DNA of 63,967 nt, counting the filler, from Dimorphilus gyrociliatus (lineage: Eukaryota > Animalia > Annelida): the NCBI GenBank assembly GCA_904063045.1. It is 4 parts of 4 records of this genome, joined end to end, with 100 filler letters (N's around TTAATTAATTAA, not from the genome) between each part and the next. Parts side by side here need not be neighbours in the genome. Positions count along the whole stretch, not along the records: positions 1 to 21,638 come from CAJFCJ010000068.1; positions 21,739 to 40,405 come from CAJFCJ010000012.1; 2 more parts are not named here. The stretch is one strand, 5' to 3'. Below the pieces are notes generated by a model. That model saw only the letters and a list, made by a program, of their open reading frames with translations. It did no database searches and was not told where the DNA came from. This document shows positions 150 to 39,002 of the stretch, in pieces (position 1 is the first letter of the stretch; every line of letters begins with the position of its first letter). The position numbers and the translations under genes are program-made.

Positions 150-187
150 TCCATGCCACAATCCAGTTTGGCAACCAACTCTTCAAA

Positions 188-577
188 ATGAAAATTTTTG
201 TTGTATCCTTATTTGTGCTATTTGCAATTTACCAAGCTCATGCAAGTGGGTTAATTAGTGATTTGGCTGAAAATCAAATCCCTGATGCTGAAACTGAATC
301 AATTGATTTAAATGAACGTGAAATTGATGAAGAATTGGAAAATGAACTAGCCAAGGTAATACAAACAAAAGCACAATTTTTCACAATTATTTACTTGATT
401 GTTTTAATACAGAGAGGAGTAATGAAATGGATCACCAAACTCTTCAGCAGCAAAAAAGGTATCAGTAAAGCTCAATGTGGACTTTGTGCTGTTGCCCCAG
501 CAACCAAAAGATGCCAAAGAGTCAAAAAATTGTGCCTGATGAAACATAAAATTATCATTCCTTATAGAAAAGTTTGA
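188..577 (+). CDS. Two-exon secreted cationic Cys-peptide precursor A (110 aa; exons 188-355, 413-577); candidate antimicrobial peptide
   Basis: Signal peptide MKIFVVSLFVLFAIYQAHA, acidic propiece, 57-nt GT..AG phase-0 intron 356-412 whose removal creates K|R, then a 53-aa basic peptide GVMKWITKLFSSKKGISKAQCGLCAVAPATKRCQRVKKLCLMKHKIIIPYRKV. AATAAA at 593. Confidence 0.8.
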   Translation: MKIFVVSLFVLFAIYQAHASGLISDLAENQIPDAETESIDLNEREIDEELENELAKVIQTKAQFFTIIYLIVLIQRGVMKWITKLFSSKKGISKAQCGLCAVAPATKRCQRVKKLCLMKHKIIIPYRKV

Positions 578-764
578 ACAATAATATATGTCAATAAAAT
601 TGAGATTTGAATAAATATTATCAAGCATATTAAAAAAAATAGTGTTAAAAATATATTAATTTTTCAAATATTCACTTCTAATTTTTTAAATTTCAACTGC
701 TCCATTTATTAAATATATTTTCATATAAATAAATATATTATAACATTCTTTTCGAATTCTCTTA

Positions 765-1600
765 CTATATAAGGGACAAGTTTCCCCAAAGAAGGGGACA
801 AGTTTTCCCAAAATAAGGACGAGTTTTCCCAGGGACGTTCTTGCATTTAAACAACGAACAATTGTACACTTTGAATAGATTCATTCTAACGTATTCTAAC
901 GAATTGTAATATAAATAGCAGCTTGCATTTGTTTGCAATGTCATATCATCTTCATCATCCTTATTCCAACAATCATATCTTCCATCCTGAAAAGTCCATG
1001 CGGGTCTACATACCCTACCGCAAATGTATTGTTTATCATTCTGACAATAAACGTTAGTTGCATTGAGAGGAAGAGATTCTGAATTAAGAATTCCGTAACA
1101 ATCTTCATCACTCATATCAAAGCAATTTTCTTCAAAATCACAAAATCTTGAACTACTCATACATTGTTTATTCTTGCATAATCTTTCTCTTTGATTGATT
1201 GATTGATTGATTGAATTGTTTTCATTGCATATACTGATTTATTCAAAACTAAACATACACACACTTACCCTACTCCACACTCTCTATATGCTATTATTTA
1301 AATAGAGACAAAAATAAAATGTTACTAGCTCTAAAAGGCCTACAATCTTAAAATTTCAAAATTTCATACAGCAATTGATCTCATCTGATCCGTCTAAGCA
1401 ATCATCTATGTAGTTGCAAACAAGGAAATTTGAAATAGTTTGATTGTTTGTTAAGCATTCATAGTGGAGAGAATTGTCAGTGGGACATTGAGTTTCATCT
1501 TCATTTGAGAGACAGTCTTGAATTCCATCACAAACATAAGCAATATTAATGAATGTACCATGAGTTGTACATAAAAATAATTGATAATTTAGCCTATTTG
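765..1600 (-). pseudogene. LDLa-repeat exons of a truncated GRL101/LGR-like receptor paralog
   Basis: About 1590-1375 reads LFLCTTHGTFINIAYVCDGIQDCLSNEDETQC..YECLTNNQTISNFLVCNYIDDCLDGSDEINC. ORF 765-1160 (CDFEENCFDMSDEDC; CRPAWTFQDGRYDC..SCYLYYNSL) parallels 19153-19491. It runs into a repeat at about 770-840 with no LRR/7TM following. Confidence 0.65.
770..840. repeat. GGAC-N-AGTTTTCCC subterminal repeat of a non-autonomous DNA transposon
   Basis: Tandem aaggacaagtttcccc/ggggacaagttttccc/ggacgagttttcccagggacg; related arrays at about 33150-33210 (same orientation) and 22810-22920 (inverted). Confidence 0.55.
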
Positions 1601-2920
1601 CCTCATGATGATAATTTAAACTTTCACCAAGTAAAACTTCAACTTGAAGAGTTTATTATGAAAAAGAAATTATTTTTGTAAACGTTATTTTTTTTTTCTA
1701 ACTAGAAACCTTTGCTTTGTTTTTTTTGACAAAAAAAATGGTGAAATTTTTGCGACCTTAGGAGACATTGAACGTGAATTGAATCTATTATTTGTACTGA
1801 AATATAACCATCATCATAATCATAATCATAATCATCATTATAATTATCATTCATGAAATTCTATCTAGAAAAGTAATAGCTATACTTGAGAATTTTTTAT
1901 GGATGTACCCCAATCCCAACTCAGTCCTTGACCTTGGTCTATTTTTATCATTATTCCTAAGCCTATCATGTAATGAGTTACCTTTTCAATTTGAAACAAA
2001 CATTTGGTAAATCTTGCTCCATATACTTTAATAGTAGAAATTTTTCATTTCACAAAATAAACCAAATTGTTTAATATCTATCTGAGGTGTTAATGGGCGA
2101 TAAATGAACATAAAGTAACATATATGATCAATTATTATTGGATTGGAAAATTTGTTACAATCAAGAACTGTAAATATTTGAATTTTAGCGGTAAATTTCA
2201 TTTAATCTTTGAAATTAACCTTTTCTATCAGATTTTAAGCATTTGATACTAGTTCTATAGACAAATGCACCCTTTCTACGGAAAAGGAGATAATAGAAGA
2301 TAATAGATTTGGTAAATTTTGAAATAGTTTACATTTCCCTTGTTAAAATACAATGTTCGATGTTTGATGAATTTTGAAAACAAGTAATTTTCCCCAAAAC
2401 ATAATGCCAGTCTGAAATATCGGAAGTTATAACAGAGTTCCATAACTAAATCCAAAGAAGGTACATATCTTTTGTATAGTAATATATGACATTTTTTGTA
2501 CTGTCATGTAGACATTTGCATCATTATACTGAAATTCACCAATAAACTCGTTCGGATGACTATGACTCTCATTTATGTAAATACTCTCCAAGCTTATTAA
2601 ATTATGTAACCTAGATTCTTTATGAATAGAATATTTATCAATGGTTAGCTATTGAAAATTTCTCCATTAATTACTTCTTGGAACATTTTTTTGAAATTCT
2701 GGATTGTAGAACAATAGTCTATTATTCAATGGATTTAAATCACAGCTTATATCATTGTTTAATAGTCTACATTGGTGGAGAGCAGGAAATTTGATCTATA
2801 GAATAAAACATTAAACAACTCAAGCGATATTAAAGGATTATAGAGATTGCATTCAAAAAGGTGAACATATTTTTTCTATAGTGAAAGTACTAAAGGACAG
2901 ACAGCAGCTCCCCCTATTAT

Positions 2921-4538
2921 TCAAAATAGTACCTGATCAAGTTGTGGATGCTCGAAATATTTGGTATAATGAACAGAATATGACATGTTTAATTGTTTAC
3001 ACATGAAAGCTGTTACATATACTCTGTTCTCTTCAGTCAATTTTGCTGTTGGAAAAATTCCATATGTTTTTGATACTGCTAGATAGTTGAACTTTTTAAT
3101 GGGTGGTGGCAAGGGAAATAGACAAAAAGACAAAAATGAAGAAAGTAGCAAAAATATAAAAAAATATCTCTTACAAGAAACATTTTTCTTGAAATACTTT
3201 AAAGTTGTGATGAGAGATCCTCCATTTTCTAATTTATAACTATAACGTAAATTTCTGTCTTAAGTTTGTTGTATATGAATTTTTGAGATGAGGACAACTC
3301 AGTCACCTATTTCCTGAATAGGCTGATTGAAATTTATTAAGATGAGTTGTTTATATTATATAAACTCTTCAAAACAGATTTAATCATCGTTCAAGTGAAC
3401 TGATCAAATTCAACCAGCTCAGAAATCTGGGTCAGGTTGTCCTTATCATTGAAAACTCTATTTTTTAAGGCTGACAGGAAACAATTTTTGATTATATTAT
3501 CGCCACAGTTAAGGTAAACCATGTCAACTTTTTCAACTAGATTTTTATAATAGATGAAAGAGTATAGTGGATCATATCCAAATTCTCCACAAAATTGACT
3601 CAATTGCAAAGGAGACTGGTAACCGTATTTCAAAAACCAGGATTCAGTATCTTCATAGTCATTTGAATCAATCATCTTTATTTCTCCTATAATTGATTCT
3701 TTCTCTTCTAAGATATTAGTTAGTTGAAATTTTGCTTGTTCAAAATTTATTGATGCTTGAAAGACACATAATATAATTATACATTTCTTAATACATCAAT
3801 TGTTAAGGACATTACCATTTCTTATTTTGCTACAAGCTGGGCTGGCAACATAGAATTTAACTTCATGAAGAGTTGAAGTTAGTTGACAATCTGTAATTTT
3901 AACACTTTTCCTCTTTTGACAATTGCTAATAAAATGTGTGACGTCATTGGCCCATCTCTTCTCGCATTTATGTTTAACTGCAAATTTTGATACTGCATCA
4001 CAGATCATTTTGCAGGCTAGAGACAATTCTATTTCGTTAGCGAAAGCGGGTGCAATAATACCATATGATTTTGATTTGAGTGTAAATGGTGGAACAGACA
4101 AACCAAACATTCTTAAATAGGGATAAAAAGCTCCATTAACAGAATTATTAATAATTAAAATGTCTGTTGAATTAAAAAGAAATTTGAGAAATTTTTGAAA
4201 ATTTTCATAGATTTAATTATCTTGAATTAGGATTTACCTTTAAAATCCTGAAAAGTACAAATGAAATATCTAGTTGAAACATTCCTTTCAATTTCAACAA
4301 GTTTAAAGCTGTTTGATTGTTTGTTTGAGATGAATTCAATTCCATTATTTTCTATTTTTAATGATGTTATACTACAACAAATAAATTTGCTTTGGTTGCA
4401 TATTGCCTTTGATAGGAAAGAATTTTTAATAATGGCGAAATTCTTTTCATTTTTCCTTAAAAACAATCGATAAGCATTGTTTTCCACTTGTGTTGCGAAA
4501 TAATCTATATTAAAAATGTATTGGTAACATAAATCCAT
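2921..4538 (-). CDS. Probable exons of an unidentified protein downstream of an RNI-type LRR segment
   Basis: Co-oriented ORFs 4227-4538, 3796-4110, 3391-3675 and 2921-3151; no family recognised. Confidence 0.3.
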
Positions 4539-4559
4539 ATTTAAATATACTAATTTCGG

Positions 4560-5150
4560 ATTTTGTTGATCAATGCCCAGAGTTTTTTTGCTTCTCTACC
4601 AACTAAACCTTAATTTTAGACCTACCCAATCGTAAATCAATTCAACACCAGACAAAAAATTATGGGCATTTTTCAACAGCCTATTTGAAATTGAAGAAAT
4701 TTCAACACTAAATCAATCTGTTCAATTTTATGACAATTAATTAAAAAATTGCCAATTCCTCTAGCCATATTTCCATTTAAAAGACAGCCTTTAAAATGAA
4801 TTTCTACCAGAGTAGGAATACAACTATTGAGTCCTTTCAAAATAGTTAATAAACTCTCTTTTAAATCTTTTTCAAGGAAAAGTCACCTTTTTGTAAAGAG
4901 GAGCACTCCTTTAGTAAATCTCCAACACTCTTGCTGTTATTTCCATTCAGATTGCAATTGCAAAAGTCTATAGCTTTAAGTTGAATTGATGATGTTAAAA
5001 GCGCTTGGCAAATTTTGGGTAAAAAATGTCCAACAGCAGGATTCCAACCTAAGTGAATTTTTTCAATTTTTGAACAGTGAATAAGAAGACTTGATAGGGT
5101 TTTGTAGTTATTCTCGCTAGAAAGAGTGTATTGGAGAGAAGCTTGGTAGC
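4560..5150 (-). pseudogene. Ribonuclease-inhibitor-type LRR repeats (NLR-like), frameshifted
   Basis: Minus strand reads LSSLLIHCSKIEKIHLGWNPAVGHFLPKICQALLTSSIQLKAIDFCNCNLNGNNSKSVGDLLKECSSLQK, frameshift, then LTILKGLNSCIPTLVEIHFKGCLLNGNMARGIGNFL: alternating 28/29-aa repeats. Confidence 0.7.
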
Positions 5151-5219
5151 TGGTGGGTTAGGGTTAGGGTTAAACATATAAAGACTTTTGAAGAGGTACA
5201 TGATTTTTATCATCTAAAA

Positions 5220-5500
5220 GTTGTTATAAAAGGTTTTAATGCAGCTGAACGAAATGTTTGTGAAGAGAATTGTCTTCCATTTCCAAACTGTGCTGGTTAT
5301 ATAATACATGAGAGTAGGTGTAAATATTTCATTTCTGGTTATAAAAGCTACAGTACAAGTAAGCACTTGCTGAAAAATATAAATGTTCAGCTGGAAATGG
5401 TATTGCAATGAAGGAAACTGCAAATGTTTTAGACTGTAAAAATGAATGCAACAAGTTAGATAATTGTGTTGGATTCTCATTCAATAATCCTGGCCTAAAC
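5220..5500 (+). pseudogene. PAN/Apple-like domain pair, frameshifted
   Basis: NVCEENCLPFPNCAGYIIHESRCKY, then in another frame ANVLDCKNECNKLDNCVGFSFNN (C-x3-C-x5-C-x-G-F/Y pattern). Confidence 0.5.
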
Positions 5501-6279
5501 TCTAACCCTTTAAATTTTGCAACACAATCATTTTAATCATTTGGGTACCACGTTGCTGGCGTCGAACAAGTTCAAGATCATGCATAAAATCTGTATATTA
5601 ACTAATTCATTTATCTTCTCATTCTCATCTTTCTCTTTAGAATTGGATGAGTATGAATTCGGTATCCAATCAACACATACTGTTGTCTAAGTGAAAGACA
5701 ATTTTATCATTTTGAATTTTCAAGCTAGAGGCGAAAGGAATAACCAATCAACGATTGGTTGTCAATCTCTAACTCTTTGGCAATAATTTAAAGGGAAATG
5801 AAACAGTGAAGATGTATACAATACAATTCAGAATAAGGAGAATTATCGATTCAGAACGTTATGTTCCGTTATGCTTAAACGAATTGAAATTTTTACAATC
5901 TTCATCATAATCTATAGGCATTTATTAAAAAAATATTTTCTTACATCTTATTTAGACACGTGATCTTCTTTTTAAACCGTGTACCACAAATCAACACTAA
6001 AAAATGTATTTATTCTTTGTTTTAATAAATGGCTTCTGTTTTGTGTTCAACTTTATTGTTCATAATAAAAAAGAACTTGAAATATTCTCTTATTCCTTAT
6101 TCAACTGCTGAATGCAAAAAATTCAATGTCTAGTATTCATGTAAATCTATAAAAATTTCTATCTATCTGTCTGTTGATGATGTAATAACATCGGTATGTA
6201 GAGAGACACTAGTATTCTCAATAGACAGTTTTCATATGATGTTGTTTGGAAGATGAGATACTTGAAAAAGAAAAAATTA

Positions 6280-7588
6280 TTAGGTACGATCAAAAAGTTT
6301 CAAAGTATGTGTTTTTTTTCATTAGAAATGTTTGATGAAATGTATTAATTTTTGTGTATGTTATAGCCTATAGTCTACTCTACAAATGTTAATAATTCAA
6401 TTTTTAATAGTCCCCTCCTTTCTCTATGCAAGCGTGCCATTTGCTAGGAAGTAGATTAAGGCCATTCTGGTAAAAGGAGGTTAGTTTTCTCCTTATAAAA
6501 TCTTTTACATCTTTTTTTAATTGCTCCAAATTTTGGTATCCTCTGATATGGTCCTTCAATCTTCCAAAAAGATAATAGTCAGAGGGAGCCAAATCAGGGC
6601 TGTATGCTGGGTGAGGGCACAATGACCACCCTTGGTCTCTTATGAAATCTGTTGTGTAGAGACTTGTATGTGGTCTTGCATTATCATGCTGCAATATTAT
6701 TTGTTTTCCAGGTCTAATTCTATGTAATCTCTTCCTTAGTCTCTTTAGGGTCTCAACATATTGTATTGAGTTAACTACCTTACCATACTCCATGAATTCT
6801 ATGTGGATTAAACCTGAACAGTCCCAAAAAACTGAGCACATTAGTTTTTCAGCTGACTTAGTCAGTTTAAGCTTCTTTTCAAGTGGAGATGAGGTGTGCT
6901 TATATGTCAAAGAAGACCTTTTAGATTCTGGATCATACAGGTGTACCCAGGTTTCAATTTTTTCTAAAAAGTCTTTTCCTTCTGCTGTGTATCTTTGGAG
7001 TAGCTCTGTATAATGACTCACCCTTATCTGCTTCTGGTCCATATTGAGAGCATAAGGAATCCATTTTGCACAGATCTTTCTGTACCCCAGCTCCTTTATA
7101 ATTTTTCCTACAGCCTCTTGACAAATTTCTAATTTTTTGGCAATTGCTGTCTGAGAAATGGTCTGACCTTCTCTGATAAGCCAGTCAATTGTTTCTCTGC
7201 TCTGACTTGTTACAGCTGTCCTTGGATGACCAGATCTTGGCAAGTCTTCAAAATTTTTTCTTCCTTTTTTATGTCAGATACCTACCTTCTTATGGAACAT
7301 TCACTCAGAGTTGCATCCCCTCAATAGCTTTTTAACCGCTTATAAATTTGTTTAGGAGAGACCTTCTCATTCACTAAAAATGCAATGATTTGTCATTGAT
7401 CAGAACATGTGCACATGACTTGCAGTTGCTTACACCAAAATAAATTTGTAATGGCTCAACAGAATTGAATGAAAGTTTGCACGATGAAAGTTTACTAATT
7501 TACTAAGATATTTGGAAAGTATCAATGATAGTAGTCGAGCTGTTTTAAAATTACAGCACATAGTTTGAAACTTTTCGATCGTACCTAA
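6280..7588 (-). mobile_element. Complete but inactive mariner (DD34D) transposon, 1309 bp
   Basis: 32-bp TIRs TTAGGTACGATC(A/G)AAAAGTTTCAAA(G/C)TATGTG at 6280-6311 and 7557-7588 (2 mismatches); TA target duplication at 6278-79 and 7589-90. Confidence 0.95.
6404..7420 (-). pseudogene. Mariner transposase, disrupted
   Basis: KWIP, QHDNARPH and YSPDLAPSDY motifs present. The first catalytic Asp segment is missing (FLEKI-ETWV instead of I-VTGDETW); the N-terminal HTH region (7243-7420) has stops and a frameshift. Confidence 0.9.
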
Positions 7589-9347: not shown

Positions 9348-10520
9348 CTAAATGATAGAAATTTTCAACCCCCTATTCACCAGCATCTCAATCATCCTTT
9401 TATATTTAATGATTAAAGATGATATTGAAAATATAAATGGATTTAAAACACAATTAATTGGTATGAAGAATACAACAAGTATAATTTTCATATTATTATT
9501 AATCTTTAATTCAGTGATTGTTGATAGAATCACTGCAAAACAAATGATTTTTTTTAATATTGAAATTACCATATTCTAAATATATTCAAACCTAATATAG
9601 ACAGTGGAAACCAGCATATAACATTTGTGACTATTGTTACAATGAATGTTTTACTTATCTTTTTCTTATTTGAAGAATAATTCAATTTCAATGATTTTAA
9701 AATAATTCTCAATAAATCAATATTTAAAATCAGAATTATTAAGCTTGTTAAGAATGGAAAAACACCAAAACAAATCATTGAGAATAGCCATCCTTGAGTT
9801 TTTTTACCACCAATTTGAATGTTAAAACATATTGAGTATTGAGAAAAGAAATTCTAGAAAGAGGAGAATGTTTTTTTGAAAATAATCAACTTTTTGAATA
9901 GAAGACAAACTTTATGTAAATAGAGTGGTATTAAATTTAATAGAAAAGCTACTATTACAGTGAAACTGGAAATGAGATGAGAGAATTTTGATAAAAATGA
10001 TACTTTAAATGGATTTTTCATTGTTAAAATTCTTTCAAATGTCATAAAGAGTAGGCTAAAATTTGATATAAGTAATCCACTTGTCATAATACTTCCGCAA
10101 AATTTACATATAGGACTATTTTGCCAATAATTTCTATTTTCTAAATAATTATCATGATAATACGAGTCAACTATTGAGATTATTAGGAGAAATGCGGATG
10201 TTAGCAAATCTCCAATGGTTAGACTACATCTATAAAATTTTCCTTTCATCTCCGAAGAGAAGATAATGATTAAGGATGAAAAATTCGCAAAAATTCCAAT
10301 TATTCCGTATCCATAGAACAATACTTTTAGTAGAAGAGAACTCAATATATCTGAACAGGAATTGAACAGAGAACTTTCAGGTTGACATATAACATTTTTA
10401 CTGGCAAATTTCCAAATTAAACAACAGAAATGGAAATTTGATCATTCGAACAATGAAAACTATTCAAACATTGAAATTGCCGTACAGTAGGAGAATAGAA
10501 GACAGTTTGAGTTCTATTCA
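9348..10520 (-). CDS. 7TM region of an LGR/GRL101-type (relaxin-receptor-like) GPCR
   Basis: Hinge HFCCLIW..VICQPESSLFNSCSDILSS, then GDLLTS, FMTFERI, CWFPLSI, IPINCVLNPFIF. GT-AG introns 9910-9854 (57 nt) and 9591-9533 (59 nt) restore frame. One apparent 1-nt frameshift just upstream of the hinge (about 10435). Confidence 0.85.
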
Positions 10521-10567
10521 ATTCTATTTAAAAGTAATAATTTCATAATTAATGATTTATTACAAAG

Positions 10568-21638: not shown

Positions 21639-21738
21639 NNNNNNNNNNNNNNNNNNNNNNNNNNNNNNNNNNNNNNNNNNNNTTAATTAATTAANNNNNN
21701 NNNNNNNNNNNNNNNNNNNNNNNNNNNNNNNNNNNNNN
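21639..21738. other. Assembly gap with TTAATTAATTAA linker
   Basis: 100-bp N block with a six-frame stop linker; identical blocks at 40406-40505 and 58679-58778. Confidence 0.98.
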
Positions 21739-24749: not shown

Positions 24750-27700
24750 TAGTATTTTCACATTGCCATGTGTTATTCTATAGAATAACTTTCTTTTTTA
24801 TATGGGACATTCTTTCCAGGTCCCTATCTTTTGCAAAAAATCATCAAAATTGTCCAAGCAACCTTTAATTGATTAAAGGATTTGAATTGTCGTTTAAACT
24901 TTTAGTTGAGCTCTCCTCATAAAAGCTGGTAGTTTTTCCATCGACTCCTACTTCGTTACCTTCAATTTTTGTAATATCAGCTTTTGGAGGAATGATAATC
25001 AGAGACAGAGTTGCTGTTGATGTACAAGGATTGTTAGATTCATCATATACATAGAGTATTATATCATATTTTCCAGAAAATAGAGGTGTCTTTGTTGTTA
25101 TAATTTGATTTGTTCCTTCTTTTATCTTCACACCAATATCCTCATTTCTTCTCCCTATAATCGACATTTCGTATACTAATTTTGAATTCAATCCTATATC
25201 ATCATCTTTGGCAATCACTTTAAAGATTTCTGTACTTTCCGGTATATTTGATTTAATTATTTTGCTTACGTCATCATTTTCAATTGTTGCACAATCATTT
25301 ATATCAGTAACAGTTAACGTTACTATTGTTGATGTTCTATACACTGGAATTCCATTGTCAAAAGCGTCTATTTCTATTATGTATACTCCAGGTTTGAATT
25401 GTTGTTTTGCTATTATTTCACCAGTTGTTCTTTCAATATCCACAGGAATTGATGTTTTCGCAATCTCGTAGTAAACTAGATCAGATTTTCCATAGTCCGT
25501 ATCATTTGCTTGAACAGTAAGTAAAACTTGTTCAATGTTAAAATCTTCGCTAACTTCTGCTGAGTAGTTTAAATTTGAAAAAATAGGTTTTACACTATTA
25601 GGTGTGATAGGTATTGAACAATCGTTGCCTTCGTATTCTCTTGCACATAGACATTTATTAGCACTAATACATTCGCCGTGGTTTGAACAGTCTGATAAAT
25701 CAGTGCAAATTGGTATATTAGAATATTCTCCTTTCCAGAATTGATCACATGTACATTTATTAAATCCTGTACAGTTGCCATGAGATGAGCAATAGTTTAA
25801 TTTTTCACAAGAGAATGTTAAACAGTTGTCAATTTCTGAGTAGCCTTCTTTACATTTACAAAAGTTTGGTGATTGGCAAACGCCATTTGGTGTGCAATCT
25901 TGTTCACAAATTGGTATTGAACAGTTTACACCTTCATAGCCACTGTCGCATTGACATTGGTTATCTGTAATACAGATTCCATTGCCTGAGCAGTCATTGA
26001 CGTTTGGACAGCTGCTTTGTTTACTGCAATTGTCTCCTTCAAATCCTTTATAGCATTTACACCTATTTGGCTGTAGGCATTCTCCGTTTGTGAAACAGGT
26101 ATTCTCGCATATTGGCTGAGCACAGGATGAACCTTTCCAACCTTTATGACATATACACTCTCCAGGAGGGATACAAATACCATTTCCATGGCATTTATTC
26201 TTTGTTTCGCAGTTGTATTCCGAACAATTTTGGCCACCAAATCCCAAATTGCACTTGCAAATTCCGTGATCAATGCATATACCCCTATTCGATCAGCCAT
26301 TTAGACATAAAGCCTTTTCCGAACAGTTCTGACTTGTCCATCCTTTGTTACATTGACAAACATCAACATCTACACAGAGACCTTTGTTGGAACAATTTCC
26401 ATTGCATTCTGCTTTAATATCACAAAACGAACCAATAAAACCAAGATTACATTTGCAAAAACCATTTTCGCATTTGCCTTCAATACATTTTTCACATGTT
26501 CCATATTGGCAACTACTACCAGACCAACCATCTATACAGAAGCAAAACCATCTATACAACTACCCCTATCTGAACACTGATTTTCACATAGTAAACCTTG
26601 CAAACTTGTTTGTTTACTGAGACTTTCATCACCAGTTATTACAACGTCATAAACGCATTGATCTTTCATTAAATCTGTCATTTCCCCTTCACCGATAGAG
26701 CAAATTTCTTTTGCTCTGTTAATTGCCTTTTGCGTAAATCCAGTTAGTGATATAATTGGTGTGTGAGTAATATCAATATAAGATTTATCAATTGAATCAT
26801 CTTTATGAAAGTCAGTATCTGACCAAGAATTTAATAATCCTCCATTATTGCGAATTGTTATATTGATTCTCCAAGATTCAACAAATTCATTCGATGATTG
26901 AAATATAGATTGATTGCTTCCAGTGAAATCATCATCAGGGTTATTATTCATCACTCTGCACAATCCCGATGTTTTATTCATCATTTCTTTTACCGATGTT
27001 AAAGATGTACTTAGATATTGTCTTCTCATTGATGAACTGTAAAAAGCGTCTATGAAGAGTGACGCTCCATTTTTATGTTTTAAAGATAATAGTAAAACAG
27101 TTGGATTTGATTTTTTAACATTATTCGAAGTGATCGATATATCTAGTCTAATTGTTTTATTGTCAAACAATAAACTAGTGTTCAGTTGATCATTTGTTAG
27201 AATGGCTCCATCCAAGCGATTGATAGGTAAATCGTCTATAGAACTTTTGGGTATTGTTGTTATCGTTAATACAGAAGTTTTTCCAACTTTAAGAGCAATT
27301 TGACCTATAAATGATGTCCTCTTAAAGCCAAACAGTCTGTATTGATATGATAGAAACTCTGATTTACAACCCCAAAATTGTCCAATTCCAAAAAAATCAA
27401 AATTTCTTCCATCTATTGTCTGAAAATGTGGATCTCCCCAATTTCTGTTTGGGACTGACCTTTCGCAATGTTTTCCTGTAGATCCTTGTGTACACGAACA
27501 CTTTGCCGAACAATTTTCATCCAATTGACATGTGCCGCCATTTTGACACTCACTACAATCTGGTTTCTTGCAATCTTCTCCTTTTCTTCCCTCAGCGAGA
27601 CACTTAACGCCACACTCTTTTTTGTCTTCCTTATCGTTTGATTGAGGACTGGAAAGTAATTTCCAAAGAGAAAACAGCTTTAAAAAGGTTGTAAACACTG

Positions 27701-27969
27701 TTTTAAGCCTACCTCTTCACTGCTGTTGAACTACCTGAAATTTTCTTTGATAAGGAAAATTCAATGAAAAGGATTTTAATAGATCCAAAAAATTCCCAAG
27801 GACCCAGACTAAAACCAAGTTTAAATAGTTTTCTTTTAATCATACACGTCTGTGAACTACATCTGCCAGCAGCAAATCTAATTGTTCTAGATAGATTACC
27901 CTGGATTTTGACATTTGACCTCTGTAGATAATAGAAAATCTGAATCAAGTACTCTTTTATAAATCTCAA
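24750..27969 (-). pseudogene. EGF-VWD-multi-EGF-2x cadherin surface protein (VWDE-like with cadherin repeats), disabled
   Basis: VWD (NWGDPHFQTIDG..SGLC..NNPDDDF), about 10 EGF repeats, two cadherin repeats (VQANDTDYG, AFDNGIP, DIND, IAKDDDIGLNS). Frameshift at about 26550 (GGT TTT GCT lacks one T), in-frame TGA 26295-93 at a Cys position, further shift at about 27700. Confidence 0.8.
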
Positions 27970-28444: not shown

Positions 28445-30411
28445 ATGAAACTTTTATTCACAATTACTTTAATTGGTAGGTCTTTAATTCCTTTATAAAA
28501 TAATTTTGAATAATTAACAAACTATTTGCTAAACCTTGTTAACTTTTTTGCATTAGTATCATTGGTGGAATGGAACTATGCAAATTTTGTTTGTCCAGTT
28601 AATTCTGAATTAAAACCAGTAGATGGTTCATATCCTGACCCAGAATTTTGTGGAATTTATTATCATTACATTAATGGTACAGCTCATCCTCAACAATGTC
28701 CACCTGGACTTTTGTTTACAATTTCTCTAACTAATTGTAAATATTCTTTGTGTGTTGAACCACATTTGGCTGATTGTCCAGGTGGAAGTTCATCAGAAAC
28801 GATTTTGTCAGATTATGCTCCGGAATGCTCTAAAACTGGTGACGTAGTGAATACATTTGAGAAACCGTGCTACATGAAAAATGATGATTGTGAAGATGGT
28901 CAAAATGGAACGTCCCTAATAAAAACGATTGTAGACAATACTATCATTGTAATAATGGAGTTGCTTGGCCTCAGCAATGTCCCCAAGGCTATTTCTTTAG
29001 TCCATCATTAAATATCCGCGAATGTTCGGCAAGAGTATGTGTTTCTGCCGAAGAATTGCAATGTCCTGTGCCTGGAGGATGGTCCGAATGATCAGAATGG
29101 GGTAGATGTGAACCAGACTGAGGAGATGGTTTAAGAACCCGAACAAGAACTTGTACAAATCCACCCCCTTCAAATGGGGGAGATGAATGTCCAGGAAGTT
29201 CAGTAGATGTTGAATTTTGTTTAAATCCTCCTTGCGATTTAAAGAAAAAACCTGCATTTATGGTTTCATTGAGCAGGACCACAAAAATGATAAGGTCATA
29301 TGGCACAGAGTAAATTATGATAATGGAAATTTATTCAATGCATCTACAAATGAATTGAATATAGTTGAAAATGGTTTTTATTATCTTTCAAATACTGCCA
29401 CTTCACATGTTAATAGTGTAACAAATTTCTTATTAAGAGGTAACAAATTGGGCGTTGAAGTTGGTCTTTCTCAAGAAAAAAGCCATTATAGGGACACTTT
29501 TTACTAGATCTGGAATATATTCTCTAACTTCTCTCTCAAAGCCAGATATTTCGTCAGATTTTGCTGTGAGAGCTATTGGCACTCAACTTGGCTCTGAAAC
29601 ATCTTGGTCAGGTTTCATGTGCGAATCTGATAATGTATTTTTTGTTGGAACAGATATAGCTTTTTTCAACTTGAGAAATCAAATACCACTTCCTAAGGTT
29701 GTTTCTCTAAGAGGTGCATCTATAAATAGTGCCAGAACAGAATTAACAGTATTGTCAAAGGGATGGTATTTTATTCATTTTGGTACAGGTTTTCAAACTT
29801 TCACTAGAGGTGTAGTAAGCCTAACACTAAATGGTGTTTCAATATCCTTTGAGAGATCTATAGTAAAAGATCATACAAGCTCACGAAAAAATCAAGCATC
29901 TAGAGGAATTATTATAGAACTTAATGAAATGGATAGAATATCATTAACATTAATTGAAGGAATGTCAAGATCAAGTGTTTTGTATACCTATATAGCAGGA
30001 TTTCAATTAACTGCAACTGTTGAAACTCCAGCATTTTATGCCTACAGAACGACAAATTTAACAACATTTAGAAGAGTAAAAATTGGTTATGATGAAGTTG
30101 TTCTGGACACAAATTCTGCATGGAATTCTTCGGATAATACATACAAGGTTGCAGTTTCGGGTTTATATCACATTGATGTATCTGTTGGAACAATGCCAGT
30201 TACACAAGCAGTAGTACGTGTAATGGTAAATGCTACACAACAGTTATCAATGCAAAGAGTGAGACCTAGATCTGGAGTTGAAAGTATGAGTAGAGGTGGA
30301 TTATTGAAATTGGAACAGGGTGATATCTTATCAATTGAGACAACATATAATCTTCATAGTGATCGTTGGAAAATGACATCATTGGCGTTGTTTTATGTTT
30401 CATCATTATGA
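28445..30411 (+). pseudogene. Secreted CBM14-CBM14-TSP1-C1q x3 protein, disabled
   Basis: Spliced signal peptide MKLLFTITLI|VSLVEWNYA (intron 28476-28556); two peritrophin-A domains (GSYPDPEFCGIYY..CPPGLLF; CRQYYHCNNG..CPQGYFF); TSP1 GGWSE*SEWGRCEPD*GDGLRTRTRTCTNPPPSNGGDECPG; three C1q units (PAFMVS, VFFVG, PAFYAY..SGLYHIDV). TGA at 29089 and 29119, plus frameshifts. Confidence 0.8.
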
Positions 30412-31180
30412 AATACATTTTTATTATCTTGATAAAAATTTTTATGCATCACCTTACACACGCACAGGTCACGTGTTCTTATATCAAAATATGACATTTT
30501 GTATTCTAAATTTCTTGAAAATACAAAAACTGCAAAGTAGAAATTCCTTACAAAATTCTGTCATAAATACATATTTCAAAATATTTTGTTTTTTGTCATT
30601 TTCTAGATTTTGTTTTATGCTTAAATTACTTTCCCTATCAACTTTACCTACACCAATTTCTAGTCCATTTCCATCAGTCAGTAATATAGGAAATCTGGCA
30701 TTCTCACTAAGACAACTACAGGCTAGAATGTCATTGTTGTCCAGCTGGCATTTCATCAAGAATGGATCAAATCAAATGAATATAATACGACATTATTAGA
30801 GAGACAAGTAAAAATGTTATATTTATCCTTGTTAATCAAGAATTAAACAAGCAAAAGTGCACTCTTCAGACAGAGAGGCTGATAAACAATCATTTTTAAA
30901 GTAACACTTAATTAAAATTCTGCTTCAAGGGGGTCTTAAATTATTATTCATAAATTACTACAAGATAATATGTTAGTTATCAAACTATTCAAGTTTTTCA
31001 TGTTCAAGAGAATAAATTCTTAAAAAAATTCCCTGAAAAAGTTGTCTTGTTCATTTTACTGCAAAACAGCTTTATGAAGAATTGTGTGCCTTATTTTTAT
31101 TGTGCTAAAACTCTTGCTAAATTATCTCACAGTAAAGAAATTGTATTGCAATCTAGGTCAAATACTATTAATTTTTATTT

Positions 31181-32807
31181 TCAATCTCTTTTTGCTTTGA
31201 AAAAGCTAAAACACTTTATTAAACAAAATTTGGAAAATAGCTTTTTAATTAACCAAATAATTAAAAAACATAAAATTACTAAAATTAGAAATAAATCTAT
31301 ATTATAAAGTGTATAGGTTGGCATATCCATTGCAGAATGTCTTAAATGACTACCACCAAACTTTAATACATGATTTATCCAGTATACAGCTTTGTCTAAT
31401 GGTTTTGGTTTGAGAGATTTGAGAAGGGAGGACACTCTCTTGGCTGATTTTACATATGAATTATCATTCACCATTTTAGCTATGTATTCTTTTAGGAATG
31501 ACATATCTTTTGTATGAAAAGGTAAAATTTCCGACATTCCGTGTCTCTTCAAACGAACTGAATTGTCTATAGCATCTGCCGGAAGTGGAATAGTCAAAAC
31601 TGGAACACCATGATACATAGATTCATATATGGAATTAAGACCACCATGAGATATAAATAGAACGCAGCTTTCTTTAGCTAGAAGATAGGTTTGAGGAATC
31701 CATTTAAAAGTATGAATATTTGGATAATCTTTATCCAATTTGCATTTTAATGACCAAACCCAGTGAATATCTGAAAATTCAATAAGAATTTTATAAATAT
31801 TTGCCAATAATTTTGGATGACTGCAAAAATCTAAAGAACTTCCAAAAGCAATTATACCAAATCTGCAAAATTAACACTTAAATTAAATATTTAACCAAAG
31901 TGTTTATTTACTTTTTAGATGAAATTTCATCAAATTTAGGATCAATATTTGTCACATTTATTGGTTGAGATGCTAAAATACCACCAACTTGTATTATATT
32001 TGGAGTCAGAGGACGAGGAAATTCAAATATTGGATCTGAGTTTACAAGAAATATTTGAGCTTGTTGTCGAATTGTTGTTAAACTTTTCTCAGGTGAAATT
32101 TTCAATTCTGCTTTTAATTTCTCAAAATTTTTATCCATTACCACCATAAAAAGGGATAGAAAGATATTGGATATAACACTTTTCACTCTATCAACAACTG
32201 TCATTCTATCATTTAAATGACTAAGGAATGTTGGAACCCATGACATTGGTGATGGTACAACAGCTTGTGAATATGTACAGTAGGAAGTACATTCAAAGAC
32301 AACAAATGGTTTTTTATACTTTTCTGCCAATAAGAAACCACAAAAGTAAAAATAATCTACTACGAATAAATCAAATTCATCTAGTCTTTTTTCAATAGTT
32401 GGATCAGCCAACATTTCTTTACAATCATCAAGAAAACCATCCCACATTGGTTTGAAATTTTTATCCATAGATAGTTAAGATACATTTTGATATAACATTT
32501 CAACCTTAGCCCTATTCATACTTTCACCAATCAGCTCAACAGCTTCTTCAGAAAGTGGTGAATGTACGTCAAATAGTGAAATATTACCCGGATTATCAAT
32601 TCGAACAGTTCCTTGACGTAGAATACTAACTTTATGTCGAGATGTAATTAAACCTTTCCCAAGGACAACCATATTATCGGCATGACTCTTTGATAAGTAC
32701 TTGGTAACTGGAGGTGTTAAAAGCAACAAATTTGATGTCAAAACTAAAGTGAACAGTTGGCTTGTAATCAATATCCAAATAAGCAGTTTTTTAAAACTAA
32801 TAAACAT
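31181..32807 (-). pseudogene. UDP-glucuronosyl/glycosyltransferase (UGT family) with one in-frame stop
   Basis: Signal peptide, UGT signature WIPQTYLL..FISHGGLNSIYESMYHGVPVLTIPLPADAIDN, C-terminal TM and KAKRD ER-retrieval tail; 49-nt intron 31911-31863; in-frame TAA 32477-75 (YQNVS*LSMDK). Confidence 0.85.
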
Positions 32808-33573
32808 TCTTTAAAAAGACTATTCCCAAATGAAAAAAGAATGAAATTAAGCATAGAGACAAAGTTAATATTTGTTTTTAATTGATAAAAATCACTATCT
32901 ATCTATTTTCAACTGATTATATAGAAAAAACTGATTATTATATAGAACAGTTAAGTAGTACTATTTATAATTCTAGTTTACTTGGTATCATAAAATATTG
33001 ATTTATAATAGGACAAGAGAAATTCAATAATTTAATGATAGAAAATCATCAAACAAAGATAACATAAATCTACAATCTAAATTAATATGTCACTATTTTT
33101 AAGTGTATAAACTATATCATAAATATTTTCTTTTAATCCAGTTTACAAAATGGCGACAATTTTTCCATAATGAGGACAAAAATTTTCCCAGGGACGATTT
33201 ATCCCATAAACACTCAATTTTAATAGCATTTAATCCATTCTAAAAGTATTTACTCACAAGATAAACTAATGCTTAAAGAAATAGTTTTTTGAACAAAATT
33301 AAGCTCCTTGACGGTTTAATGGACACTATTCATAGTTGTGAACATATTTTTAATCCCTATGTACTTGTATTTCAACGAGCACCTGGAATGATTTAATTCT
33401 ATAGGCATTTTTGTATGGAATGGTTGTCAAAACAATTAGTATGGTACCAGTTTAATAGTTACAGTATAAGACAGTTCTAATATTGCATTATAGCAAATAA
33501 AGTGGTTGTATAAAAATATAAAAAATAAAAGATATATAGTTGTACTTTTTTGAAAAGATTAAATAAGTTGAAG

Positions 33574-33972
33574 ATGAGTAAGAAAGTCTTTGAGTACTGT
33601 TTATTAACTTTATATCTCTTAAATCAATTTCTCTGTGTTGATGGAATAGAATGCTATAACTGTGATTCATTTGATAATGATTTCTGTGCGGATGGTATAA
33701 ATGGTAATGATTTATCAAAGAATCTTGATAAATGTACAGGAGAGTCTTGTTTTAAGCAAAAATATTCTTTTGGCTATGGATTCCAAGATGTAATAAGAGG
33801 TTGCCATAACATAATTGTACCAACAAATAGCTGTGTAGAAAGAGAATATTATAAATTTGGAGAACAGTTCTCATGCTCATGTACAACATCATATTGCAAT
33901 GAAACAGTTATTATAGCTGGATGCAATATACTTTTAATCTTTATATATTTCTTACAATTATTATTAAAGTGA
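33574..33972 (+). CDS. Ly6/uPAR (LU, quiver-like) GPI-anchored protein 1
   Basis: Signal peptide, IECYNC..C..C..SCFK..RGC..C..CSCTTSYCN, hydrophobic C-terminal GPI signal. Confidence 0.85.
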   Translation: MSKKVFEYCLLTLYLLNQFLCVDGIECYNCDSFDNDFCADGINGNDLSKNLDKCTGESCFKQKYSFGYGFQDVIRGCHNIIVPTNSCVEREYYKFGEQFSCSCTTSYCNETVIIAGCNILLIFIYFLQLLLK

Positions 33973-34133
33973 ATTAATCCAATAAATCAATTTTTTTTGT
34001 ATAGATAGCCTGTTTCAGCCTATTTCTGGCTGTTGTCACACAATATGATAATCTTAATAATGTTAATCACCTAACAACAATTGTTAATTCTCCAATGTTT
34101 TCTATGTCAGATCATTTGTAAGATATTTTCAAA

Positions 34134-34526
34134 ATGAATATATCTTTAATATCTATTGCTGTTTTCGTGATACTTTTACCTTTTACAGTGAAAGTATTAG
34201 GAAAAGTTGTTTGTTATGAATGCGAAAATTGTTTTGATGAGTATATTTATTTAAATAATACTTGTATTGGTGAGGTGTGTTTTAAGAGGAAAATAAAGGA
34301 TAACATTAATTCTTGGAGAACAATCATTAGGAGAGGATGCAAAAATAAAATATTTTGGTCAAATAATACTTGTAGAAGTACAACTCGTGGAGGAAAACGT
34401 ACCCATAACAGTGATCATGATATAGAAATTACCTATTGCAATTGTATAACTGATAAATGTAATGATAGTACTAAATTTTATATCAATAATTCTTTGTTTT
34501 TGACAATGTTACTGTCGTTACTATAA
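34134..34526 (+). CDS. Ly6/uPAR (LU, quiver-like) GPI-anchored protein 2
   Basis: Signal peptide, VVCYECENC..C..VCFK..RRGC..C..YCNCITDKCN, hydrophobic tail. Confidence 0.85.
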   Translation: MNISLISIAVFVILLPFTVKVLGKVVCYECENCFDEYIYLNNTCIGEVCFKRKIKDNINSWRTIIRRGCKNKIFWSNNTCRSTTRGGKRTHNSDHDIEITYCNCITDKCNDSTKFYINNSLFLTMLLSLL

Positions 34527-34904
34527 TATTGTTGACAGCTTCTTTACAATAAAAATTGGTTTTATTATTTTGTTATAATATGTCTTGTTTTCACTATAAA
34601 ATAAAACAATTGCAGGTATGACAGGTGGCTCCTTCTTCTTGGTCTCAGCAGACAATTTATTGTCAACTTTATCCCTGAAGAGTAGCCTATAAATTTGACA
34701 TTTCCTCGTTCAAATTACCTGGAAATCTGTTATATTGATATTAATCATAAATAATAGATAATTATAAGAGAAAATGTCCATTAATTCATCAGAAAATTCA
34801 TTAAATTATTCATTGTGTATATCTGCTTAATCACTGTGAATGAAAAAGTCTTATTTTCTTTTCTTTTTTTTTCATTTATGCTTTTGAATTAAAAGGATTT
34901 AGAA

Positions 34905-35831
34905 ATGAATGAATCCAATATTGGTTTTCAAATTATATACGATTTGAATAATATTGAAGATTTCGCTTATAAAATAATGATATTTTTTATATTAACTGTT
35001 GGAATAATTCTATCAAGTTTAGTTATCTTCCTCTTTTTAAAATTTAAAGTTATTAGAAAATCTTGTGGATATTTTACTTTTTGTTTAACGATTAATCACA
35101 CTTTATTAGCTTTATGGTTATTTTTTCTAAATATAAGCATAGCGACAGGATATCTTAATCAAGTATTGGAATTGCCCCTGGTTTGTGCGTTCATGTTTAC
35201 GCTTTTCAATTCGGTTAATATTCAATCCCAAATCAATATTTTGGGTTTGTTTATAACCAGATATTTATCAATAAGATTTCCGTTCAAATATAATTATTTT
35301 TGCCAATCGAAAATTCAAAATATGGCAATAATTTTTGTGAATTTGTTGAGTTGTGTCATTTCGTGTATTCCTGCAATAATACCAAAAGGGAAATCATCAA
35401 TTTGCTATGGTAACATTTCAATTGGAAAATCATCTGTAATAGTTATTTCTTTCTTCTCTTTTGGACCAATTTTACCATCATTATTATGTCATTTTCTGAC
35501 ATTATCATTAGCTAAAAAACATGCAAGATCTATGGAAAATCAAATGCATACTGGCCAATCTATATCAAAATCTTCAAAGATAACATTTTGTAAACTAATG
35601 TTGATTATTGTGTTATGGATATTCTATGCAATTCTTATTAAACACATCAGTTTAGATACCAATGCTATATCTTTTAAGAATATCATTCTTGTACAATTTA
35701 TCCTAATTTCTCCTATTGTTATCATTCCACTGATAATATTGATAAGTAATTCTCATATAAAATTTTTTATGAGAAATTCTTTCAAATCTAGAATATTTCC
35801 AAGAATTAGAAACGATATTGAACAACACTAG
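34905..35831 (+). CDS. Intronless orphan rhodopsin-class GPCR (308 aa)
   Basis: Seven hydrophobic segments; ITRYLSIRFPFKY (DRY-equivalent followed by the P-F-x-Y loop). Confidence 0.8.
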   Translation: MNESNIGFQIIYDLNNIEDFAYKIMIFFILTVGIILSSLVIFLFLKFKVIRKSCGYFTFCLTINHTLLALWLFFLNISIATGYLNQVLELPLVCAFMFTLFNSVNIQSQINILGLFITRYLSIRFPFKYNYFCQSKIQNMAIIFVNLLSCVISCIPAIIPKGKSSICYGNISIGKSSVIVISFFSFGPILPSLLCHFLTLSLAKKHARSMENQMHTGQSISKSSKITFCKLMLIIVLWIFYAILIKHISLDTNAISFKNIILVQFILISPIVIIPLIILISNSHIKFFMRNSFKSRIFPRIRNDIEQH

Positions 35832-36749
35832 ACCAAGAACCATACTAACAGGTCAGCTTCACCTATAATATACTGTATATATTTCTTTTATTTTCTTCTT
35901 TTTAATCATCAATCTTTCTTTCATTGTTAAGTTTTAATGATTTTGATATATTCAAAGACCTATTGAGATTTCTTTCTTACTTTGTGGAAGTTTTCTCCTA
36001 CACTGAAAAGTTTCAATTTTCTAAAAGCTTAAATTTTTCATGTTTCATTGTTACTCTATGAAAAAATTACATGTTTTTGTGTCTACTCGGAGTGATGATT
36101 CCTGAAACCTACCGCTAAAGATATTTGATTTTCAATACAGTTTTCATCTAAATACTTAACCAAATGATAAAATGTCTTTTTCATCCAAATTCTCTTCAAG
36201 ATTGCATAAAGTCTTTTCGCAATTTAACATACTTTTGTTGTTTTCTGTTGAAGACTTTTTTTTACAAGTATACCAACTAAGATTTTATAATTACTAGGGT
36301 AACTTACCTTGAATGATTTTGTGCTAAATGATATATTCTCATTATTTGATATCTCAAAAGAATGACAAAATAAAATTGCTGTTATTACAGATTTTGCCAT
36401 AATTAAAATGTTTTCAGTATTGAATAATAGATGGTCAGTTTTAGATATTTCTATTTATTCTATTTCTATAATTCACCATAAGAATAATAGAACCAGGGTT
36501 TGTCCCTTTTATTACTGTTTGACTTTCTCAAAAATCAACTTTGAAAGGATATTTCGGTTTGTCTCATTAACAAAGAATACTTATTTCCAGGTGCACCATT
36601 TGCCCCATATTTACCATAACAATATCGGAATTATATTGAACAATGTCAAAGCTATAGACAATGATAATTTGAAACTCACTTGAATAATTACTACGTCTGC
36701 AACTTTTCCTATTAACCCTAAACCTAACCCATCACTGAATAAACAATAC

Positions 36750-37082
36750 ACAGGCTTTTTATAAGATTTGGTTCTCGCTTATATTACGAAATTGCGAACA
36801 ATTTAAATTAAAATTGTATTTTAGGTACTCTTGGTCTCTCACATCGTTCAATTACATTCACTCCCTTTTATACCTTGCTAGCGTTACTTAATTGGGTGTT
36901 TGACGGTGCTCATCTGTGTTGCCACCTTCGTGCCACATCGTACCACGTCGTTATTTACCTGGTGATTTCACATCAAGTTAACTGGACTATCCCGGCTTTA
37001 GGCTAAGTCAAACTCCCTTCTTAAGTGACGCTCACATACTGACATACATTCACTGACTCACATTCACTTATAACATGTAACA
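36750..37082 (-). mobile_element. Solo LTR related to the BEL/Pao element's 3' LTR (about 62008-62330)
   Basis: Reverse complement begins TGTTACA and shares GAGCGTCACTTAAGAAGGGAGTTTGACTTAGCC, CAGATGAGCAC.GTCAAACACCCAATTAAGT and GGGAGTGAATGTAAT with 62057-62330. No TSD found. Confidence 0.85.
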
Positions 37083-38441
37083 TTCTGTTCAGGCTTTTTC
37101 GAACATTCAAAGGTATAGCCAACTCTTTCTTTCTGACTTTTAAAGGGTAATTTCAATATTGAAAAAATATATTTCAATATATATAAATATACTTTTCTTC
37201 TCTGAGTAGTTATATGAAAAATGTTTCATTCTTCTTATAAAATTCATTTTTATTAAAAATATCCAATTCTACTGGATAATTTGTAATTAATTTTTCAATA
37301 GATTTAAATCAAAAGCAGAAAATAGAAGTGGAAGATTAAAAGGAATTTTTATTTGAAGAATATACACTTTTACAAGAACTAGTTTTATATATTTAGACAC
37401 AAAACACTAACTCACTGCTATGGACAACTCCAAACATCTATCTGTTTTTTTGAGTAGTTTTAACTTTGCAAAACATGAACACAAGTCCAACAATGAGTTA
37501 TATAGAAGGGAACTTGAAATTATCATCTTTAGAGATATTAAAAACAATAGCATATATTATATTCTTGAAGGACACAGGAACTGTATTAGAAAGGACCAAT
37601 TGGAATATCAAGATATTGGGGCCGACAGAAAACGTCCCGAAGTGAGATTTTTGAAAGCAACATTTCGGATTGAAAAATGGTTAGGGTGAGTGAAGTAGCC
37701 ATTGATTTGTAGTTAGGGGGGTTCCTTCTAAGGGTCAGCGGTAATCAAAAAGGTTAGGGAGTGACAAGGGCTAGGTTAGGGTTAGGGTTAAATCATGCAT
37801 TTGGGGACGTTTTCTGTCATAACCCAAGATATTATACCAACCTTATCATCAGTGTCTTGAAGAAGCTTACCAGTCTAATATCAATTCTAGTTAACTTTTC
37901 AAAAGTTGACAATCTTCTTTCAGTCGATAAATCTTTTATAACTTTACTAACTTACTACTCAACAAAACACAACAGACTTTTTTTGTATTATTGAAAGAAG
38001 ATACGTTATTTTAAATTAGGCCTATAAAGTGCAATTTTTAAAGAAAACAAGTCTATGTAAGTCATTTGAGCAGTCTATTAAAAGAGAATAAAAAGAAACT
38101 AGTTTTCCAAACCGTTAGTGCAAATATCATTATGTGGGTAAAAAATAACTAGGACAGAACTCAATATTTGAAATTATAGGTGATTTTTCAAATTTTATAC
38201 CCAAAATTACATGGGGTGAAGTGGATATTATCTTTCAATGATATTTATGAAAAGAACATATGAATCAACTTCTAAGGTAGAAAAATTGCTCATAAATATC
38301 CTAAGAGAAATAAAAAATGTCATGTCAATCATATTTTCTGCATTCATTATTTTTATTTGGAAAATTTTAGTATAAAAGTAAAAAAGCAGGGTTAGAGTTA
38401 TTTATGTTAAACATTTCCATTCTTTCTCTTGTTGTCATTCT

Positions 38442-39002
38442 TTACCATCTTCTACCTTTTCTTCCGCGATGTCTTCTTGCACTACCTCCTCTTCTTCCAC
38501 CGCGTCTTTTTCCGCTACGTGCTCTTCCGCTACGTGCTCTTCCGTTTTTGGGTTTCGGAGGAGGGTATTCTATATTGTAGTCGACCTTGCATATTTTAGC
38601 GATTCTGGGACATCTGTCAGCATTTGGATTTACTTTGCAAGCTTTACACCAAAATTTAGTTTCTTTGCCTCTAAGCATCAATTCTAATTCATCATCTTCT
38701 TCCCTATCTTCAAGATTGCTTTCATCATCATCATTGTTCTGTTCATTATCATCATCATCAATACCACGAAGAATTTCATTTTCATCAGGATCCGATCTCT
38801 ACATAAAAGAAATAAAAATATAGATGAATAGAGCGTTAATTATTAAAAATTATACTCTGAATAGTTCTTCTCCAACCATTTGATTATCAACGAGTCCTTC
38901 ATTTCTCTCCTCTAATTCTTGAAGAAGAGAAGATAGCGAAGGATTCGCTAGAACATTGCAAGTACAGAGTACAAAAAGTAAAGTAAGACTTAAAAGTTTC
39001 AT
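38442..39002 (-). CDS. Two-exon secreted cationic Cys-peptide precursor B (167 aa; exons 39002-38856, 38798-38442); candidate antimicrobial peptide
   Basis: Signal peptide MKLLSLTLLFVLCTCNVLA, acidic propiece, 57-nt phase-0 intron 38855-38799 creating R|R, very acidic spacer, then GKETKFWCKACKVNPNADRCPRIAKICKVDYNIEYPPPKPKNGRARSGRARSGKRRGGRRGGSARRHRGRKGRRW. Confidence 0.8.

Follow-up and report, generated by a model that had tools for sequence, protein, structure and literature searches.

Do two small genes in a 63,967-nucleotide (nt) stretch of Dimorphilus gyrociliatus DNA (GenBank assembly GCA_904063045.1; hereafter the window, meaning this whole stretch) encode related secreted peptides, and what might such peptides do? 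Gene A (188-577, plus strand) and gene B (38442-39002, minus strand) had been described in a first-pass annotation as a candidate two-gene family of cationic, cysteine-containing, antimicrobial-like peptides. Both are spliced prepro-peptide genes with a common four-cysteine core, and they belong to a larger family of this annelid. We put the probability at roughly 55% that this is a lineage-restricted host-defence (antimicrobial) peptide family built on a new disulfide-hairpin spacing. Gene structure, splicing, core homology, family size and charge pattern were observed directly, and the antimicrobial reading is what precursor layout and charge would suggest.

Structure and transcripts of genes A and B

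A script run over the window reproduced the proposed structure of both genes, each with one 57-nt phase-0 intron, and gave spliced products of 110 amino acids (aa) for gene A (coding sequence 188-355 + 413-577) and 167 aa for gene B (39002-38856 + 38798-38442). These are letter-for-letter identical to the unnamed D. gyrociliatus models DgyrCDS14722 and DgyrCDS9221, respectively; both genes are thus already annotated, without a function. The features of gene A are:

141..149, plus strand: TATA-like box CTATAAATA, its T lying 46 nt ahead of the ATG, with a presumed promoter role
188..244, plus strand: signal peptide, residues 1-19 (cut site placed by eye; mean hydropathy 3.28)
245..355, plus strand: acidic propiece, the rest of exon 1, net -10 including the R at 413-415
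356..412, plus strand: intron, 57 nt, phase 0, GT..AG, splitting the K|R site, in frame and without a stop
416..574, plus strand: 53-aa predicted mature peptide with four Cys and a net charge of +14 (residues 58-110 of DgyrCDS14722)
476..535, plus strand: core C-x2-C-x8-C-x6-C, predicted helix-loop-helix (script pattern and AlphaFold2)
610..639, plus strand: AATAAA signal at 610-615, with polyadenylation near 639 (contig end; genomic A8 run at 632-639)

The features of gene B are:

39042..39050, minus strand: TATA-like box CTATAAATA, its T lying 47 nt ahead of the ATG
38946..39002, minus strand: signal peptide, residues 1-19 (by eye, hydropathy scan)
38856..38945, minus strand: first acidic pro-segment, net -5, ending at the FR|R site
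38799..38855, minus strand: 57-nt phase-0 intron that contains in-frame stops
38670..38798, minus strand: second acidic spacer, net -17, ending in LMLR, which aligns with LAKR of gene A and LMKR of subfamily C (introduced below)
38589..38648, minus strand: core C-x2-C-x8-C-x6-C, predicted helix-loop-helix (script pattern and AlphaFold2)
38445..38543, minus strand: 33-aa Arg/Gly tail of net charge +16 that includes a G-K-R-R motif and is predicted to be unstructured

We compared the window with contigs from five public runs (X1, X2, X19, X20 and X21) out of 23 listed, and the proposed splice junctions of both genes were recovered in them, with both 57-nt introns skipped. Because the gene A intron is open in frame, RNA is needed to establish it, and the contigs support it: those of runs X1 and X2 (one study) skip it (57 nt, GT..AG), while differing from the window by 3-5%, and in X19 and X21, which come from two further studies, contigs stop at the junction and read into the other exon. 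The middle of this intron is covered by no contig. One X1 contig carries 14 untemplated A about 25 nt past the AATAAA. For gene B, a single X21 contig skips the intron, reaching 93 letters beyond it on the shorter side, and the splicing evidence for gene B comes from this one study. X1, X19 and X20 give no real cover of gene B, an absence to which no weight attaches. Since introns are skipped in them, we infer that runs X19-X21 are RNA. Contig depth, which gives no RNA level, is very high in X21 over both genes.

Several further observations concern these loci. A second in-frame ATG for gene A lies at 80, upstream of the TATA box. X19 contigs over window positions 181-647 are A-type variants whose pro/mature junction matches none of the three annotated A proteins, so that more A-type alleles or copies exist. 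X21 contig 6 (573 nt, window 38433-38968) is a B-like paralogous transcript that is not among the annotated proteins found; compared with gene B, its acidic spacer is shorter, its post-core segment longer and its tail shorter.

The distances of 46 and 47 nt between TATA-like box and ATG were measured as originally reported. The box CTATAAATA occurs six times in the window, and the start context TTCAAAATGAAA at the two gene starts only. The two introns are identical at 25 of 57 positions and the median intron of D. gyrociliatus is 66 nt (PMC7854359), so their equal length is weak evidence.

Core homology and extent of the family

The shared core C-x2-C-x8-C-x6-C is identical at 9 of 20 residues between A and B, in agreement with the first-pass annotation. 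Over the six frames of the window together this pattern occurs twice, in these two genes; among 200 block shuffles of the window two occurrences were never seen and one was seen in five. Pairwise BLASTP of A against B gave 13/36 identical residues (E 3e-6), and hhalign gave 89.8%. A profile built from A scores 21.1 bits on B, a score reached by 1 of 5000 shuffles with Cys fixed and by 0 of 5000 full shuffles; a profile of A and C together scores 30.7 bits, reached by none of 5000 shuffles of either kind. Eight residues (C, C, P, C, R, C, I, K) are invariant in all six aligned mature parts. As judged from these comparisons, A and B are homologous beyond their cysteines.

That the two genes are homologous prepro-peptide genes thus stands, but the family is larger than the pair first described. 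Counted among annotated proteins only, it comprises eight gene models encoding seven proteins in three subfamilies, and some of these models may be haplotypes. Close relatives of A are DgyrCDS14719, DgyrCDS14521 and the identical pair DgyrCDS14718/DgyrCDS14573. A profile of four full precursors searched against 1.84 billion representatives gave four matches at E 0.001, all from D. gyrociliatus, and two of these (DgyrCDS14613 and DgyrCDS14433) form subfamily C, which bridges A and B with core identities of 10/20 and 9/20 to the other two subfamilies. DgyrCDS14718/14573 (P0005) has a 34-aa upstream extension and DgyrCDS14433 (P0007) is without a signal peptide; both 5' ends look like gene-model errors.

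Searches outside the species returned no relative. The core profile run against the longer proteins of a 5.8-billion set gave four matches among 2126 candidates, none of them new, and the ESM Atlas yielded a best feature score of 0.76 and then none. One metagenome match (L001), the only one of 89 pattern matches to pass, was rejected; two of its four Cys are in register, its GC content is 57% and it has no precursor. Restriction of the family to D. gyrociliatus is provisional on these sequence searches, because annelids were represented in them by few proteomes and by no transcriptome assembly of a related species. Three family model ids and two accessions are named in no publication found by a literature search without subscription papers. 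The term 'antimicrobial' is absent from the main text of the genome paper (PMC7854359), the five family motifs have 0 occurrences in five of its supplementary files, including the neuropeptide list and part of file 4, and the accessible portions of PMC13602260, PMC7460313 and PMC13518417 hold nothing bearing on the family.

Putative processing sites and charge balance

Both introns had been said to split a dibasic convertase site, AK|RG in A and FR|RS in B. The intron of A does split its K|R site, but FR|RS is not the equivalent site in B, where the aligned site is LMLR|G. In the six-way alignment, LAKR of A, LMKR of C and LMLR of B (residues 89-92) stand in register beside the core. The intron lies at the pro/mature boundary in A and 43 codons ahead of the matching boundary in B, with the -17 spacer following the intron-split FRR. 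Because cutting only at FR|RS would leave this spacer on the peptide, we do not regard it as the counterpart of AK|RG. B matches the A/C propiece end best at residues 75-94 (5/5 comparisons); the end of B's exon 1 is among the top four matches in 5/5 and tied first in one. It may be that gene B acquired an additional acidic segment. The basic site before the mature part is KR in five of six aligned members and monobasic (LMLR) in B. Further basic pairs in the tail of B may be trimmed.

Charges were counted on five complete precursors, leaving out P0005 and P0007 with their odd N-termini. Their pro/mature charges are -10/+14, -12/+13, -10/+13, -8/+9 and -22/+22, and the net charges of the proproteins, in the same order, are +4, +1, +3, +1 and 0. 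All five proproteins are thus near neutral, independent of the internal cut, and the charge of the propiece (-8 to -22) tracks that of the mature part (+9 to +22). A 'charge balance' of this kind is described for alpha-defensins and cathelicidins (PMC4571063), and anionic propeptides for marine invertebrate antimicrobial peptides (AMPs) (PMC10608444). The proregions of the family are 38-73 aa long; mature A and C have 41-53 aa, net +9 to +14, and are about half hydrophobic.

Predicted structure and sequence variation

AlphaFold2 predicts the core as a helix-loop-helix in both A and B. Mature A alone was modelled with helices at residues 18-26 and 31-44 over the core (predicted local distance difference test, pLDDT, 70.6; predicted template modelling score, pTM, 0.45), and B, with a six-row alignment, with helices at 95-105 and 112-123 (local pLDDT 72-77; overall 61.2, pTM 0.29) besides one at residues 2-19 in the signal region. 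No beta strands were predicted in either. With the predicted helix-loop-helix geometry, the disulfides would be nested, Cys1-Cys4 and Cys2-Cys3. The flanks differ. The Arg/Gly tail attributed to the C-terminus of B was confirmed, whereas the amphipathic N-terminal helix attributed to A fared less well: as a helix, its first 11 residues would be amphipathic (moment 0.60, p 0.0004), yet AlphaFold2 models no helix there. Foldseek gave no match at E 0.001, and in a fold search of 48161 chains the best Z was 2.8 and all matches had Z < 3, which is no proof of a new fold. Sequence searches of the Protein Data Bank returned best E values of 0.27-4.1, from chance CxxC matches, with solved toxins not matched, and Pfam gave nothing credible on five pieces or on six mature parts.

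Between A and C the signal peptide is kept better (14/19 identical) than the mature part (14/41). Conservation of the signal above the mature part is a pattern familiar from AMP and toxin families.

Proposed function and alternative explanations

If the host-defence reading is right, the products would be secreted via the signal peptide, and the acidic propiece, which may mask the cationic part until release, would be shed by cleavage after KR in A and subfamily C or after LMLR in B. The released peptides, strongly cationic and carried on a predicted two-disulfide helical hairpin, would likely damage microbial membranes. The differing flanks might tune this action, with hydrophobic-cationic ends in A and C and, in B, an Arg/Gly tail for which either polyanion binding or trimming with amidation at G-K-R is conceivable.

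Several observations weigh against this interpretation. The same precursor layout also serves toxins, adhesives and hormones, and the charge balance has only three independent subfamilies behind its counts. Mature B is 27% hydrophobic, its matching cut site is monobasic, and many basic pairs in its tail are open to cutting. Confidence in both AlphaFold2 models is moderate; of six members, gene A alone passes as having an amphipathic N-terminus, and in 6/6 members the second core helix is no more amphipathic than its own shuffles (p 0.30-0.68). Finally, when differences between A-type contigs are counted, with alleles and paralogues mixed, a residue is changed by 9 of 10 differences in the propiece and by 2 of 10 in the mature part (Fisher p 0.005). 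On these counts the mature part among close A-type copies appears constrained rather than racing, and not hypervariable. We regard this last point as a mild one, because avian defensins, too, are reported to be under purifying selection (PMC4571063).

Other explanations have to be set beside these data. The family could be a defensive or deterrent toxin in skin mucus that acts on predator ion channels or membranes, like the two-disulfide helical hairpins kappa-KTx (scorpion), vil14a (conotoxin) and nemertean B-IV, a reading that we consider unlikely. It would fit the predicted four-Cys helix-loop-helix, a scaffold that carries K+-channel blockers, an insecticidal peptide and, by convergence, plant AMPs, and kappa-KTx precursors also consist of a signal, an acidic pro-part and KR (PMC11722136, PMC7191063). 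But the CXXXC..CXXXC motif is missing from the family, its mature parts are longer and far more cationic, and the solved toxins gave no sequence match. To our knowledge D. gyrociliatus is also not known as venomous. The odds are no better that the peptides serve as cationic structural material in mucus, in the glue of adhesive glands or in the egg cocoon, where the propiece would prevent early aggregation. Adhesive glands and cocoons occur in D. gyrociliatus, the +16 tail of B is poor in hydrophobic residues, the core is conserved among close copies and several gene copies would suit bulk output; yet A and C are without repeats and half hydrophobic, and the sole adhesive-family match was Mfp-3, at E 7.4 and far under its cut-off.

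Signalling through a receptor, whether as a neuropeptide, hormone, pheromone or reproductive peptide, appears slightly less probable again. While the signal peptide, the basic cleavage sites, the possible amidation motif of B and the same conservation of the core would suit it, net charges of +9 to +22 are unusual for signalling ligands. Moreover, none of the five family motifs is found in the genome paper's neuropeptide list (PMC7854359, supplementary file 5), and no relative was found outside the species, whereas the neuropeptide complement is called canonical (PMC7854359). That A and B are unrelated and share their cysteine pattern by chance or convergence is very improbable and largely refuted. 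Their signals are only 6/17 identical, their flanks differ and they lie on different assembly pieces, but shuffles with Cys fixed almost never reach the profile scores (1/5000 for A, 0/5000 for A+C), subfamily C matches both cores, and the eight invariant residues recur in 6/6 aligned members.

The host-defence reading extends to a broader and more tentative proposal, which we hold at somewhat under even odds: A and B would be founding members of an undescribed animal AMP family, in which a fixed C-x2-C-x8-C-x6-C hairpin chassis carries swapped cationic modules (an amphipathic N-terminus in A, an Arg/Gly tail in B) and the length of the propiece matches the charge, expanded in a compacted genome and probably present in unsearched annelid transcriptomes. 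The D. gyrociliatus genome has 1.63 genes per orthogroup (PMC7854359). If true, a marine worm would provide a new short two-disulfide scaffold that is easy to synthesise and test, even at seawater salt, a defence family that expanded while most gene families of the genome shrank, and an example among invertebrates of mature charges from +9 to +22 being matched by the propiece. Should the peptides prove inactive on microbes, they would still be an unexplained species-level family of secreted peptides.

Other features of the window

The window is AT-rich eukaryotic DNA and consists of four pieces, the two outer ones at least 21,638 and 5,189 nt long and the two inner ones 18,667 and 18,173 nt, separated by three identical 100-nt spacers N44-TTAATTAATTAA-N44 (21639-21738, 40406-40505 and 58679-58778). 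The spacer has stops in all frames and is presumably a contig-joining device. The first of them separates the two genes:

21639..21738, no strand: artificial spacer N44-TTAATTAATTAA-N44 between the pieces bearing gene A and gene B

Because of this spacer, the position of A and B in one window is no evidence of linkage; gene order across spacers carries no biological evidence. The database proteins of genes A and B are on separate contigs of 210,417 and 2,855,573 nt, respectively. When eight other open reading frames of the window were looked up by exact sequence in order to place the pieces, none was found.

Other genes and elements are listed below.

6404-7273: Mariner-type transposase
9854-10441, minus strand, and 34893-35831, plus strand: two rhodopsin-class receptors
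24865-27716, minus strand: gene with VWD, many teneurin-like EGF repeats and two cadherin domains
29437-30799, plus strand: tandem C1q-type domains
31181-32474, minus strand: UDP-glycosyltransferase
40506-43829, minus strand: uninterrupted open reading frame of more than 1,100 aa, cut by the spacer, with no Pfam match at E 0.001 and, by eye, several repeated Cys/His-rich RING-like segments after a hydrophobic region
45645-44480, minus strand: another TATA box, then a signal-peptide-like start at 45595, without the Cys core, and a thrombospondin-like stretch (by eye) near 44620-44500
52327-54975: reverse transcriptase with GIY-YIG endonuclease, which we take to be a Penelope-like element
58874-61686: Pao/BEL retroelement

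Comparison with known peptide families

The remark that the Cys spacing is not recognisable from defensins, macins or arenicins holds, in that it matched none of the listed annelid AMP families; the six listed in a 2019 review include none with C-x2-C-x8-C-x6-C in the accessible text (PMC6780910). A check of A and B against neuropeptide, protamine and Pfam families likewise gave no match. Protamines and other nuclear basic proteins are intracellular and without a signal or acidic propiece, whereas gene B has both.

Among annelids, the BRICHOS AMPs (arenicin, alvinellacin, nicomicin, capitellacin), macins, lumbricins and hedistin are cationic precursor peptides too (PMC6780910), but the family described here has no BRICHOS domain and no predicted beta-hairpin, and combines four Cys with a short acidic propiece. 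The proregion of BRICHOS AMPs contains a BRICHOS domain of about 100 aa, whereas whole proregions here measure 38-73 aa, and no such Pfam match was obtained on the A and B pieces. Macins, defensins and ABFs have at least six Cys and a cysteine-stabilised alpha-beta (CS-alpha-beta) fold, as opposed to four Cys per mature part and no predicted strands. Saposin-like proteins (caenopores) are membrane-active cationic helical peptides with C-x2-C on the first helix, but they have six conserved Cys in a larger helical bundle, not four within 20 residues (PMC6780910). Closer in size is perinerin from the polychaete Perinereis aibuhitensis, which has about 50 aa, is cationic and has four Cys opening with C-x2-C, as here (PMC6780910). 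Up to its second Cys, perinerin agrees by eye at 7/12 residues with the A-type copies P0002/P0003 and at 6/12 with gene A; this agreement is absent in subfamilies B and C, and its spacing is C-x2-C-x27-C-x4-C, against x8 and x6 here.

In layout, the prepro-AMPs of the alpha-defensin, cathelicidin and centrocin-strongylocin types have the same signal and balancing anionic propiece, and a basic processing site such as is predicted here (PMC4571063, PMC10608444); the Cys number and predicted fold of the present family are different and there is no sequence kinship, so that the layout alone is alike. In predicted fold, the nearest are the cystine-stabilised alpha/alpha hairpins, to which the family has no sequence match. 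These are defined by two CXXXC motifs, whereas all six members here have C-x2-C and C-x6-C. Nevertheless, alpha-hairpinins, kappa-KTx and the conotoxins flf14a and vil14a likewise place four Cys on two helices and a loop, an arrangement that is predicted here (PMC7191063, PMC11722136), and as would be the case for the present family, these hairpins are defence or toxin peptides cut from precursors.

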